From Acidimicrobiia bacterium (lineage in GTDB: Bacteria > Actinomycetota > Acidimicrobiia > Spongiisociales > UBA5794), in the NCBI GenBank assembly GCA_030431785.1, contig JAUIIM010000005.1, positions 1-51,796 on the forward strand: a stretch of DNA of 51,796 nucleotides, in the 5' to 3' direction. The position numbers and the translations under genes are program-made. This document shows positions 17,697-20,825 of this stretch, piece after piece (within the stretch, counting starts at the first letter, position 1; each line of letters opens with the position of its first letter). The notes beneath the pieces are model-generated. The model made no database searches. It was not told where the DNA came from and was given only the letters and a program-made list of their open reading frames with translations.

Positions 17697-17764
17697 CGAT
17701 CTCCGATCTCCGATCTCCGATGCCCAGGGTTGTGAGAGTCGGAGATCGGACTGTCGGAGATCGG
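17697..17764. repeat. Inverted pair of arrays: CGATCTC x3-4, then TCGGAGA/TCGGACTG units
   Basis: cgatctc cgatctc cgatctc cgatgcc ...14 nt... tcggaga tcggactg tcggaga tcgg; the arms are complementary. Confidence 0.85.
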
Positions 17765-17853
17765 GTTCTGTCGAGGCATGCAAAGTGGAACCAAGCGCTA
17801 GGCTTCCGGCACCAACTAGCGTTCCCCCGTCAGCGATTTCGAACGGAGCGTCC

Positions 17854-18378
17854 GTGGACGACCAGATCGCCACCAGAAAAGCAACTCTCGATCCGGCTAC
17901 CGCACCGGTGGTGCTTGCCGTCTCCGAGACGCCACCCACCCGGACCGAAGCGCTCCACATCCACACGACGGCGTCAAACGAGTTCTGGGATGTCACCGAT
18001 GTCGTTCGGGCCGTTGCCAAGCGGTCGAAGGTCACACACGGTCAGGTGACCGTGTACACCCCGCACACGACGACCACGATCGTGATCAACGAATCGGAGA
18101 CGGGGTTCCTCAACGACTTTCGACGCACGATCGGCTCGCTCGTTCCCGAGGACACCTACTACGAGCACGACGATCACTCGGTGCGCACCGAGAATCTCCA
18201 GGAAGACGAGTTCATCAACGGTCACGCCCATGTGCGTCAGCTGTTGACGGGACAGCCGTCGGTCACGGTACCGATCGTCGATGGTGAGGTCCTTCTCGGT
18301 CAGTGGCAGCGAGTGCTGTTCGCCGAACTCGACCAGGCCCGCGAACGCCGCCTCTTCGTACACGCGCAAGGATCCTGA
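17854..18378 (+). CDS. yjbQ: Second YjbQ/UPF0047 family protein
   Basis: VYTPHTTTTIVINE, YEHDD, NGHAH and LLGQWQRVLFAELD motifs; GTG start after ggag. Confidence 0.85.
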   Translation: MDDQIATRKATLDPATAPVVLAVSETPPTRTEALHIHTTASNEFWDVTDVVRAVAKRSKVTHGQVTVYTPHTTTTIVINESETGFLNDFRRTIGSLVPEDTYYEHDDHSVRTENLQEDEFINGHAHVRQLLTGQPSVTVPIVDGEVLLGQWQRVLFAELDQARERRLFVHAQGS

Positions 18379-18398
18379 TCGCGGAGCGATCAGGATCC
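18370..18398 (+). terminator. Perfect 13-bp hairpin over the yjbQ stop
   Basis: ggatcctgatcgc-gga-gcgatcaggatcc; no U tract. Confidence 0.5.
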
Positions 18399-18443
18399 GA
18401 CGATCCGATATCCGATGGTCCGACTGTCCGACGGCGGTCGGTC
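18394..18443. repeat. TCCGAnnn 7/8-mer array (left arm of the stem enclosing the four-helix-bundle gene)
   Basis: tccgacga tccgata tccgatgg tccgactg tccgacgg; complementary to 18843-18889. Confidence 0.85.
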
Positions 18444-18481
18444 TACTTCCAAACGGCGTCCGGTCTTGGTATTGGTGCGCT

Positions 18482-18844
18482 ATGCACAGGTATCGCAGTC
18501 TTCGCGTTTGGTCCCACTCAGTTGATCTTGCCCGTCATGTCTATCGGATTGCCGATGCAGCACCGAAGCGGGAGCAGTTCGCGGCAGCCGGTCAGATGAG
18601 GAGGGCGGCGCTGTCGATCCCGTCGAACATCGCCGAGGGTTCGTCACGACGTACTGCTACCGAATTTCGACGATTCATCGATATCGCGATGGGATCTGCG
18701 TACGAGCTCGATACCCAGTTGGAGGTGCTGTCCGGTTCTGACTGGCTGCCTTCGTCAACAGCGATCGAGCTTCAATCATCCTTGTCCGATATCCGTTCAA
18801 TGCTCTATGGCTTGAAACGGTCCGCAGTTGATCAGACACAGTGA
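18482..18844 (+). CDS. Four helix bundle protein (23S rRNA IVP family / Avd-like fold)
   Basis: YRSLRVW, QMRRAALSIPSNIAEGSSR and EFRRFIDIAMGSAYELDTQL; 120 aa. Confidence 0.93.
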   Translation: MHRYRSLRVWSHSVDLARHVYRIADAAPKREQFAAAGQMRRAALSIPSNIAEGSSRRTATEFRRFIDIAMGSAYELDTQLEVLSGSDWLPSSTAIELQSSLSDIRSMLYGLKRSAVDQTQ

Positions 18845-18889
18845 TTGTTGCCGTTCCCGGACAGTCGGAGATCGGCTGATCGGAGATCG
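18843..18889. repeat. TCGGA-type array (right arm of the stem enclosing the four-helix-bundle gene)
   Basis: cggacagtcgga (18858-18869) is the exact reverse complement of tccgactgtccg (18419-18430), followed by gatcggctgatcggagatcg. Confidence 0.85.
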
Positions 18890-19035
18890 TTCTGATGTGA
18901 ACAATCGGTTCGCGGGCCGCAATTGGTGGCATGGGATACGAAATGGGGCTAGCGTGAAGGGTGCCCCTTCCTATCCCGGAGGGGGACCGTGGCTCAACGC
19001 CACGGATAAGCAAGGAAATAAAGAGAGGAAACAGC

Positions 19036-20133
19036 ATGCTGAAGAGACTTGCTGTGCTCTTTGCCGTACTCGCTCTCGTAGCTGCCGCTTGTGGCGGTTC
19101 GAGCGATGACACCACGACGACGACCGAAGGCGACTCCGGTCAGGAACCATCAGGGGAAACGCTTGCCGCCGTGCAAGACCGTGGAACCCTGGTTTGTGGT
19201 GTGTCAGGCAGTGCTGTCGGTTTCTCCGAAACCGACGCAGAGGGCAACACGACCGGGTTCGACGCAGACTTCTGCCGTGCAGTTGCTGCCGCCGTTCTCG
19301 GTGACGCTGAAGCTGTGGAGTTCCGCAACCTGACAGCCGCGGAGCGGTTCGAAGCGTTGAAGAACAATGAGATCGATGTTCTGTTCAGGAACACGACCTT
19401 TACGCAGAGCCGTGACACGGACATCGGTATGGACTTCGGTCCGACGACGTACTTCGACGGTCAGCAGCTCATGGGTAACCCTGAGACGCTTCCTGGTCTG
19501 ACGCCCGCCAGTGGCTTTGAAGCCATCGACGGCGCTGTGGTCTGCACGAACGCAGGTACCACGACCGAGAAGAACATCACCGAGGGTGCCGAGGTCGCTG
19601 GCGTGACGATCACGCTCCAGACCGTCGAGACGTTCCCAGAGGCGATGGAAGCCTTCAAGTCCGGAACCTGTGACCTCGTCACGACCGATGGTTCTGGTCT
19701 GTACGGCAACCGCGCTGCTGAGATCAACGCTGGTACGGAAGGCGCCGAGAACTGGGTGATCTTCCCGGAGGCACCGATCTCCAAGGAGCCACTCGGCCCG
19801 GCGTACCGTCAGAACGACTCAACGTGGGCTGACATCATCAACTGGACCGTGTACGCAACGTTCATCGCAGATGAGCAGGGTGTTACCTCGGCCAACATCG
19901 ATGACATGATGGATGCAACGCCTGAGCTTGCTCGCCTCTTCGGTGGCGAGGGCGAGTTGCAGACGGCCATGGGTCTGTCCTCGGACGCGTTCCTGAATGC
20001 CATCAAGGCAGTCGGGAACTACGGCGAGATCTACGAGCGGAACCTCACTGGTCCGCTGAACCTCGCACGTGAGGGCAGCTACAACATGCAGTGGCTCGAC
20101 GGTGGTCTGATCTACGCACCGCCGGCTCGCTAG
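19036..20133 (+). CDS. aapJ: Amino acid ABC transporter substrate-binding lipoprotein (AapJ/BztA-like)
   Basis: Lipobox VAAAC; GFDADFCRAVAAAV, RNTTFT.SRD, ISKEPLGP, VGNYGEIYERN and GGLIYAPP motifs. Confidence 0.9.
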   Translation: MLKRLAVLFAVLALVAAACGGSSDDTTTTTEGDSGQEPSGETLAAVQDRGTLVCGVSGSAVGFSETDAEGNTTGFDADFCRAVAAAVLGDAEAVEFRNLTAAERFEALKNNEIDVLFRNTTFTQSRDTDIGMDFGPTTYFDGQQLMGNPETLPGLTPASGFEAIDGAVVCTNAGTTTEKNITEGAEVAGVTITLQTVETFPEAMEAFKSGTCDLVTTDGSGLYGNRAAEINAGTEGAENWVIFPEAPISKEPLGPAYRQNDSTWADIINWTVYATFIADEQGVTSANIDDMMDATPELARLFGGEGELQTAMGLSSDAFLNAIKAVGNYGEIYERNLTGPLNLAREGSYNMQWLDGGLIYAPPAR

Positions 20134-20152
20134 GAGCAGCCAAGCAAACACT

Positions 20153-20180
20153 GAGAGGGCGCCCTCCGGGGCGCCCTCTC
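20153..20180 (+). terminator. GC-rich hairpin after aapJ
   Basis: gagagggcgccc-tccg-gggcgccctctc (12-bp perfect stem). Confidence 0.7.
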
Positions 20181-20186
20181 TGCATT

Positions 20187-20221
20187 GGATCGTCGGTACG
20201 TCGGATTCTCGGATCTTCCGG
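20187..20221. repeat. Degenerate 8-mer array (GGATnnTC) x4
   Basis: ggatcgtc ggtacgtc ggattctc ggatcttc; loosely complementary to 20692-20737. Confidence 0.7.
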
Positions 20222-20297
20222 CCCGAGAAGGGGCACGGTTTGACGGTCCCGTTTCCGTTCGTGGGCTATCGTGCGTGCAGCGACGAGAGGGAGCACC

Positions 20298-20684
20298 ATG
20301 TCCGACGAACTCAAAGAGCTGCTGTTCACCTGGGAAGGTCGCGTCAACCGTGCAAAGTGGTGGGGGTTTGGCTTCGGCGCCTGGCTGACGATCTTCGTCT
20401 TGTACGGGGTGTCGTACCTTCTCGTGATATCGGACTTCGAGATCCTCGGATACATCGCATTCGGCATCACGTTCCTCGCATCCATCGGGCTCGCTGTTTC
20501 CGGTGTCATGGTGACCATCAAACGCTGGCACGACCGTGGCAAGCCGGGGTGGTGGATCTTCATCTACTTCGTGCCGGTGATCGGACCGATCTGGGCGCTC
20601 ATCGAGCTCGGGTTCCTCCCCGGTGATGAGGTCGACAACGAGTGGGGCCCGAACCCCCTCGACCCAGCAGCAGCCAGGCGATAG
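20298..20684 (+). CDS. DUF805 (YhaH-like) membrane protein
   Basis: FTWEGRVNRAKWW, TIKRWHDRGKPGWW and NEWGPNP motifs. Confidence 0.9.
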   Translation: MSDELKELLFTWEGRVNRAKWWGFGFGAWLTIFVLYGVSYLLVISDFEILGYIAFGITFLASIGLAVSGVMVTIKRWHDRGKPGWWIFIYFVPVIGPIWALIELGFLPGDEVDNEWGPNPLDPAAARR

Positions 20685-20691
20685 ATCGATC

Positions 20692-20825
20692 GAAGATCTC
20701 CGATCTCCGATCCTCGATCTCGGATCTCTGAATCTCGACATCCCTCCAGTCGAAGCGCAGCCCGAGGTCGGACCGTCGGGTTTCGGACCGTCGGAGAATC
20801 GGACTATCGGAGATCGGACAGTCGG
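20692..20825. repeat. Inverted pair of arrays: GATCTCC 7-mer x6, then TCGGACnn 7/8-mer x7
   Basis: gatctcc gatctcc gatcctc gatctcg gatctct ... tcggaccg tcgggtt tcggaccg tcggagaa tcggacta tcggaga tcggacag; same layout as 17697-17764. Confidence 0.88.

Follow-up and report, generated by a model that had tools for sequence, protein, structure and literature searches.

Intervening sequences (IVSs) of 23S rRNA, among them those in helix 45 of Coxiella burnetii and in Leptospira, are described in the accessible parts of the literature as carrying an open reading frame (ORF) of the PF05635/S23p family within stem-forming ends. In Coxiella, RNase III excises the IVS from 23S rRNA; three tandem heptamers, strain-variable in number, lie just 5' of the S23p ORF, and the first of these heptamers is where the 5' cut is made (PMC4990558, accessible text). 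The function of the protein is called unknown in the accessible text of that paper and of the preprint 10.1101/2024.02.27.582315. The 51,796-nt stretch of DNA analysed here (the window; positions 1 to 51,796 of contig JAUIIM010000005.1, assembly GCA_030431785.1, from an Acidimicrobiia bacterium) carries a PF05635 gene for a 120-residue four-helix-bundle protein at 18482-18844 on the forward strand (Pfam 23S_rRNA_IVP, E 2.8e-30; TIGR02436, E 1.4e-30), between yjbQ and aapJ. Like the rRNA IVSs, this gene lies within stem-forming ends and is adjoined by tandem heptamers of strain-variable number. Unlike them, it stands between protein-coding genes instead of in an rRNA helix and has an apparent promoter of its own. 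In the accessible portions of the IVS papers, heptamers appear as direct repeats 5' of the ORF only and are not described as arms of a generally occurring cassette. The element is best interpreted as an IVS-type cassette outside rRNA whose arms come from the heptamer/octamer repeat vocabulary of its genome. The chain of complementary arrays around it, at 17697-20825, is probably a local cluster of fast-changing TCGGAnn[n] arrays, one pair of which arms the cassette, and not one device.

Prokaryotic long simple sequence repeats (SSRs) with 5-11-nt units were reportedly described by Mrazek et al. in 2007, and the heptamers of cyanobacterial short tandemly repeated repetitive (STRR) sequences are said to have been described by Mazel et al. 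in 1990. The arrays of this genome are like long SSR/STRR arrays in having 5-11-nt head-to-tail intergenic units at many loci, hundreds per genome, with strain-variable copy number, and unlike known SSR/STRR genomes in that many unit families coexist. Intergenic arrays with 7-8-nt units are likewise reported in the accessible text on the TAACTGA repeats of Beggiatoaceae (PMC4679880) and on Xanthomonas and Nostoc heptamers (PMC4692102), the latter counting 70 convergent (inverted) pairs in X. campestris. The accessible text of these two papers contains no mention of 'S23', 'intervening' or 'four helix' and does not link the repeats to PF05635. Four-helix-bundle genes of this kind are also described as wedged inside cas operons, between cmr3 and cmr2 (PMC3936711, accessible text). 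The literature searched yielded no publication that connects PF05635 genes with inverted heptamer arrays other than in rRNA, a point on which subscription papers and supplements may bear.

For the bracket around the gene, an inverted score was computed: the upstream 220 nt were aligned locally with the reverse-complemented downstream 220 nt. In the window cassette, 18394-18433 aligned with the reverse complement of 18853-18892 with a score of 34. The analysed genome (G000; 2.38 Mb in 173 contigs, 63% G+C, 95% complete, with the window as its contig C112) contains six PF05635 genes; all six are bracketed by inverted arrays, and the unit differs from gene to gene. (L denotes individual loci, the window cassette being L076 and the metagenome loci L077-L156; G denotes genomes and C the contigs of G000.) The inverted score was higher than the direct one at every one of the 31 PF05635 loci scored in this genome and its relatives, and it reached 28 or more in 22 of them. 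Among 15,003 randomly chosen positions of this genome, with flanks spaced in the same way, 1.2% scored 28 or more and 0.05% scored 34 or more. Four PF05635 loci in the aapJ-aapQ spacer also have inverted tandem arrays around the gene, the unit differing per genome. Bracketing of PF05635 genes is not a by-product of array abundance, because inverted relatedness among arrays less than 100 nt apart is 4.7%, versus 4.0% for random array pairs; it is direct relatedness that is enriched among such neighbours (12% versus 3.3%).

The same arrangement recurs in other bacteria. A scan of metagenome contigs, with alignment of cassette proteins, retained 80 loci of 30-64% G+C, 65 of them with both flanks. 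The inverted score was at least 28 in 39 of these 65 loci and the direct score in nine; in 50 loci the inverted score exceeded the direct one, and in 14 it fell short of it. Shifted controls within the metagenome loci never reached 28 (0/97). A period of 7 fitted best in 18 of the 22 Acidimicrobiia arms and in 27 of the 39 metagenome arms; for five of the latter the best period was 8. A tblastn search of plasmids for PF05635 genes returned 19 records, mostly from Nostoc, Calothrix and Anabaena, three of which were inspected. On pNe_5 of Nostoc edaphicum (L158), a PF05635 gene at 259376-259744 lies antisense between nrdB and nrdA, with inverted heptamer arms that score 63. The plasmid locus L159 of Azospirillum lipoferum was identified as 23S rRNA by its match to Rfam RF02541 (2147 bits), and inside this rRNA gene a PF05635 ORF lies between inverted heptamer arrays with a score of 47. 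Given the arms of this Azospirillum locus, the design of the window cassette is also that of a true rRNA IVS.

Cassette geometry is regular. When the 63 strong cases of every set are pooled, the median distance from the end of the upstream arm to the start codon is 46 nt and that from the stop codon to the downstream arm 9 nt; in 35 of the 63, the downstream arm starts no more than 10 nt past the stop codon. In the window, the left arm at 18394-18433 comprises about five units of the GATCCGAC type (Tandem Repeats Finder, TRF: period 8, 5.1 copies), and the right arm at 18856-18890 starts about 5-11 nt past the stop codon (TRF, 18865-18889: period 7, 3.4 copies). Between the left arm and the ATG lies a leader at 18434-18481 on the forward strand that, by cassette consensus, has promoter-like boxes at about -35 (TTCC) and -13 (TGgTAt) relative to the ATG. 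When the leaders of the 31 Acidimicrobiia cassettes are anchored on the start codon, TTCC near -35 and TG-TAc near -13 are conserved, which suggests that these boxes are a promoter for a leaderless mRNA. A sigma-70 consensus scan of 17600-21000 returned no promoters, and so the promoter is predicted from the conserved leader. The bracket around the PF05635 gene is the only one with both regular geometry and cross-genome support. Separately, arm polarity differs between the sets: the upstream arm is G-rich and C-poor on the sense strand of the gene in 35 metagenome cassettes and C-rich in one, and among Acidimicrobiia it is G-rich in seven and C-rich in 13, the window cassette being of the reversed kind.

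Whole cassettes, arms and gene together, turn over at one fixed spacer. Four congeners have a cassette in the same yjbQ-aapJ spacer, in the same orientation in G002 and in the opposite orientation in G005, G006 and G001, and the arm units of all four differ from those in the window. The cassette proteins of these congeners are 37-54% identical to that of the window, and the flanking genes 81-90%. In the closest named relative (L045), the spacer has no cassette. The arms start right at the yjbQ stop codon and thus belong to the variable unit. In the strain represented in sequencing run X11, the cassette interior is mostly without cover and one contig matches only from 18897 rightwards, a weak indication that this strain holds a different cassette here.

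This turnover could mean that the cassette is a transposable or inverton-like DNA element, with arms that serve as terminal inverted repeats or as recombination sites and have no role in RNA. Such an element would fit the presence of different whole cassettes, in either orientation, at one spacer. It would also fit L071 and L075, whose proteins are 63% identical and whose arms are similar at flanks that do not match each other, and L048 and L063, which likewise pair related proteins with related arms and lie on different contigs of this genome. Arm mismatches are strand-symmetric, as DNA-level homogenisation predicts, and an idea of mobility by Ralph and McClelland is quoted in the accessible text of PMC4990558. 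Exchange at one spacer is, however, also possible by homologous recombination through conserved flanks. Arm sequences vary between cassettes, and therefore no single sequence-specific transposase fits; searches of the genome, which is 95% complete, yielded neither a Y1 transposase nor a reverse transcriptase. The orthologous groups L049/L052, L066/L073 and L003/L013/L014 each keep one orientation, and the 35-to-1 polarity of the metagenome arms would be erased by frequent flipping. A purely DNA-based element is fairly unlikely.

The element can also be compared with described mobile elements. Avd, the accessory protein of diversity-generating retroelements (DGRs), is a small four-helix-bundle protein of the same family. 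The window differs from a DGR in that the 95%-complete genome gave no match to PF00078 (reverse transcriptase), there is no template/variable repeat pair, and the gene stands alone. It differs from repetitive extragenic palindromic (REP) elements and their associated tyrosine transposases (RAYTs) in having no PF01797 (Y1) match and in arm sequences that change from cassette to cassette. Because neither a reverse transcriptase nor a Y1 transposase was found, neither the DGR nor the REP/RAYT reading fits. Copies have no common terminal or internal sequence, unlike those of a miniature inverted-repeat transposable element (MITE). The resemblance to integron cassettes, REP/RAYT and MITEs lies in structured short repeats at gene boundaries and in single-gene units that come and go. 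Integron cassettes are set apart by their architecture, since the arms here are mutual complements that flank the gene and not one self-folding attC-type site.

The preferred reading, an IVS-type cassette outside rRNA, suggests how the element may behave in RNA. The unit consists of the left arm, a leader of about 48 nt with promoter-like boxes, the 120-residue gene and the right arm, placed in an otherwise ordinary yjbQ-aapJ spacer. In a transcript that read through both arms, these would pair into a stem of about 35 bp, which RNase III would cut as in rRNA IVSs, leaving the insert severed from the flanking host RNA. The leaderless transcript of the gene itself would begin inside the arms. 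Folding is compatible with such a stem: the cassette arms form a duplex of -46.0 kcal/mol, and the minimum free energy and centroid folds of 18385-18900 both close them. The genome contains a gene for RNase III. That RNase III does cut the stem and so separates the insert from host RNA is a tentative proposal, put at somewhat below an even chance. The complementarity of the arms would be maintained by copying at the DNA level and not by compensatory change at the RNA level.

Several observations weigh against the cassette reading or its RNA component. The fold of the whole cassette is only marginally above shuffled sequences (z -1.93; 5/100 as good). Arm mismatches on the gene strand were G.U in 60 cases and A.C in 68 across the 63 cassettes; this lack of bias gives no sign of selection at the RNA level, and it points to DNA-level homogenisation and not to compensatory evolution of the RNA. 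If the predicted internal promoter is used, the gene's own mRNA would lack the left arm and carry the right arm only. Nine of the 31 cassettes in this genome and its relatives score 22-27, inside the random range, and the third inspected plasmid locus (L157, Nostoc PCC 7120), which lies beside an insertion sequence, has arms that are not inverted and a score of 17. The label of empty cassette for two ORF-less hairpins of the window, described below, is unproven because close inverted pairs occur at the chance rate. Finally, other single genes of this genome also lie between inverted arrays. They encode a mycothiol-S-transferase (C133:5013-5673), a Rho_N-domain protein (C16:10657-12127), an AhpC/TSA protein (C132:2496-3384), an Rce1-like protease (C130:2338-3366) and an N6/N4 DNA methylase (C85:9115-10527), and a further such ORF was read as trpS from its sequence alone. 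Some of these array-flanked genes have several unit types in mirrored order. Because other single genes are bracketed too, an inverted bracket alone is not specific.

The genome as a whole is rich in arrays of this kind. A simple pattern search found 113 arrays of at least three TCGGA units. TRF reported 577 rows of period 7 and 258 of period 8, versus 134 of period 6, and the rows merge into 801 short-period arrays. Dozens of unit families are present, for example AGCCAGG, AATCCGAC and ATCATCG. These results confirm that the arm arrays are one family among the hypervariable intergenic microsatellites of this genome. Array density is about 11 per 100 kb in genomes with a PF05635 gene versus about 3 in those without one, a trend that is confounded by relatedness and drawn from small samples (11 relatives at 45-60 kb each, with G000 taken whole). 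As a separate observation, composite islands of mixed heptamer and octamer arrays occur in the window at 47348-47551 and 48607-48986, and also at 4564-4651, 39167-39262 and 40534-40584; one example consists of CACGGAT x11.3 followed by TGGCTCA x9.7. Across the stretch of about 1.1 kb at 47551-48607, the arrays on either side repeat one another, in part inverted and in part in direct orientation.

With so many arrays, everything in the chain, bracket included, might be microsatellite noise, the product of slippage with accidental orientation. The arrays are indeed hypervariable (the related strain of run X11 has one additional 7-nt unit at 20688, and units differ among congeners), other genes are bracketed by chance-like inverted arrays, and close inverted pairs occur at the chance rate. 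Set against this are the higher inverted than direct score in 31 of 31 loci, the 39 of 65 metagenome loci, versus none of 97 controls, that score 28 or more, the fixed geometry of the cassettes, and the recurrence of the design in a true rRNA IVS. Noise as an account of the whole chain is extremely unlikely; it is contradicted for the cassette but may hold for the other five arms.

The arrays could instead be binding sites, on DNA or RNA, for the four-helix-bundle protein, which would form a ring and recognise the arms of its own module. Arm similarity rises with protein similarity (Spearman 0.23; 0/500 permutations reach this value), although joint inheritance explains the correlation equally well. 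Arrays usually have 3-6 units, and the family profile matches PDB 2gsc (XCC0516; E 2.2e-40), a homopentamer according to the accessible text of PMC4990558. A GGACAGA-like unit is found both in G002 and in the Azospirillum IVS, and unit types recur in distant hosts. The presence of some 800 arrays versus six genes in this genome argues in the other direction, and such self-recognition is decidedly improbable as the explanation of the arrays. A search with PADLOC gave no defence-family match for the four-helix-bundle protein or for the DUF805 protein encoded downstream.

Returning to the cluster reading, the chain itself consists of seven arms, all at the positions given by an earlier sequence-only reading of this DNA, as the sequence and TRF confirm. 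In all seven, units of 7 or 8 nt based on TCGGA or on its complement (TCGGAnn[n]) stand head to tail. Besides the two cassette arms, they comprise two ORF-less inverted pairs and a solo array. In the divergent purA-yjbQ spacer, a CCGA arm at 17697-17721 (CGATCTC x3.6; TRF: period 7, 100% matches) forms the 5' half of a hairpin whose 3' half is a TCGG arm at 17734-17764 with GAGATCG / GGACTGTC units (TRF: period 7, 4.1 copies). A weak solo array of the TCGG type at 20187-20215 was seen by sequence inspection and inverted-repeat search. The second pair consists of a CCGA arm at 20695-20738 (GATCTCC x4.9; TRF, 20695-20728/20738: period 7) and a TCGG arm at 20764-20825, a composite array of period 15 (7+8) with 4.1 copies by TRF. 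The motif TCGGAGATCGG, with at most one mismatch, occurs 14 times in the window versus 5.06 +/- 2.09 expected (0/100 shuffles reach 14), and 11 of the 14 matches fall between 17696 and 20817. The array at 17734-17764 has an identical 26-mer on contig C48, where the resemblance ends at the array edge. The purA-yjbQ spacer is array-free in the congeners L057, L049, L052 and L045, and ORF-less inverted arrays are found in the aapJ-aapQ spacer of the relatives L004, L016 and L011.

The sequence-only reading had proposed that genes are looped out or rearranged, in the manner of a cassette array, by long-range pairings of the alternating arms that exclude one another in single-stranded DNA or mRNA. 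This proposal is supported in part: arms of the two types complement each other, and the four-helix-bundle gene lies in a stem-loop-like bracket and behaves as a cassette. All CCGA x TCGG arm pairs, local or distant, form RNA duplexes of -41 to -61 kcal/mol, and none of 200 mononucleotide shuffles was as good, which is a lenient null because shuffling destroys the repeat. Examples other than the cassette are 18392-18436 with 20762-20830 (-61.4 kcal/mol), the array at 20695-20738 with 20762-20830 (-56.9 kcal/mol), 17693-17724 with 18853-18892 (-49.3 kcal/mol) and the solo array at 20187-20215 with 18392-18436 (-43.8 kcal/mol). Since all combinations are strong, alternative pairings are energetically possible. 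The best inverted repeat of the region is itself long-range (18397-18434 with 20788-20825; 38 nt, 84%), and it corresponds to the distant complement noticed earlier, there given as 20814-20825 with 18420-18431, which is real. The two ORF-less pairs had been taken for empty versions of the cassette stem. The first does fold as a strong hairpin (17690-17770; -46.9 kcal/mol, z -4.85), but 20688-20832, which folds at -65 kcal/mol, is not beyond dinucleotide shuffles (z -1.49; 14/200 as good). A tblastn search of the ORF-less hairpins for PF05635 remnants found none.

The proposed looping of genes fared less well. The comparison drew on Logan contigs from four sequencing runs, which would miss rare variants. 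A contig of 29.6 kb from a strain with 98.8% identity runs colinear with the entire stretch, and none of the four runs showed an inversion or deletion that joins one arm to another. With neither rearrangement in these contigs nor genome-wide enrichment of close inverted array pairs, gene looping is unsupported. During transcription, local pairs would be expected from folding kinetics to outcompete pairings over 2-3 kb. Both yjbQ and aapJ are core syntenic genes, and the array-free purA-yjbQ spacer of congeners means that the chain is recent and strain-level. What survives of the cassette-array idea is the PF05635 unit, which is exchangeable and armed; yjbQ, aapJ and the DUF805 gene are not cassette-like. 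Looping or rearrangement of genes by the alternating arms is very improbable, and no such role is indicated for the ORF-less pairs or the solo array.

Three further candidates were rejected. The DUF805 gene as a second cassette was set aside, as its flanks here are poor mutual complements (no listed inverted-repeat pair; 20185-20218 with 20690-20740, -27.1 kcal/mol) and its homologues in L001 and L012, at 53-58% identity, have no surrounding arrays. A MITE-like spread of the hairpins was rejected when blastn-short against the genome matched the array part only, over at most 32 nt. A weak tblastn hit for PF05635 on C156 falls within a long reading frame of the opposite strand and lacks an IVP-like frame itself; it was discounted as a false positive.

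The five extra arms are lineage-specific arrays of the TCGGAnn[n] unit and may be scars of cassettes, products of local spread or unrelated microsatellites. A more far-reaching possibility is that PF05635 cassettes form one widespread exchangeable class whose protein acts on its own heptamer arms, that cassettes or their decay products seed the 7-8-nt arrays, that the rRNA IVS is the best-known landing site, and that the five extra arms of the window are footprints. Taken as a whole, this scheme is quite unlikely. Two puzzles nevertheless meet at this locus: the role of the ORF in rRNA IVSs, and why some bacteria abound in 7-8-nt tandem arrays. If a gene with inverted arms is a general design, the IVS is one case of a cassette that is also found within operons (yjbQ-aapJ, aapJ-aapQ, nrdB-nrdA), and the stem and the protein become open to testing in culturable carriers. 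For annotation, such a cassette would account for small "four helix bundle protein" genes wedged in operons and for contig breaks at the arms.

The cassette is set in a conserved gene neighbourhood. The core order purA-[yjbQ]-aapJ-aapQ was found in the 46 related loci of the Acidimicrobiia type that were fetched with AapJ. On the left, purA (adenylosuccinate synthetase; 16384-17655, reverse strand; PF00709, E 4.8e-186) is syntenic in relatives. All of the following features lie on the forward strand. The yjbQ gene (UPF0047; 17854-18378; Pfam E 8.3e-31; NCBIfam TIGR00149) has its start set by conservation with relatives, which share a conserved GTGGACGA start region. A perfect 13-bp hairpin over the yjbQ stop codon at 18370-18398, found by inverted-repeat search and folding, abuts the left cassette arm; 13 nt of it are missing in the contig of the more distant strain of run X11. 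The core gene aapJ (19036-20133; Pfam SBP_bac_3) encodes an AapJ-like substrate-binding protein of an amino-acid ATP-binding cassette (ABC) transporter, and a terminator-like G+C-rich 12-bp hairpin predicted by folding lies 3' of it at 20153-20180, in a position conserved in relatives. The spacer between aapJ and aapQ is mostly empty in the 46 loci; a DUF805 gene occupies it in two and a PF05635 gene in four, in either orientation. In the window, the variable occupant is a gene for a DUF805 membrane protein (20298-20684; Pfam E 7.4e-24). The core gene aapQ (20917-22512; Pfam BPD_transp_1, synteny) encodes an AapQ-like ABC permease.

A block just 5' of aapQ, at 20850-20916 (TTTCCTGCAAA ... GTCTAKGGTGCC in relatives), is kept at the same position throughout L001-L046. 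It persists through all cassette turnover and could be a leader element or a promoter for the permease genes. Repeats of longer period are also present. A tandem repeat at 31893-32119 of the window, with a period of 27/81 nt and 2.3-6.2 copies, is codon-phased and probably encodes a repeat-containing protein. At C146:22645-22981, an identical 19-nt TCGGAGATCGGACGCTCGG block occurs four times at an exact spacing of 106 nt, forming a longer-period repeat of TCGGA-type units.

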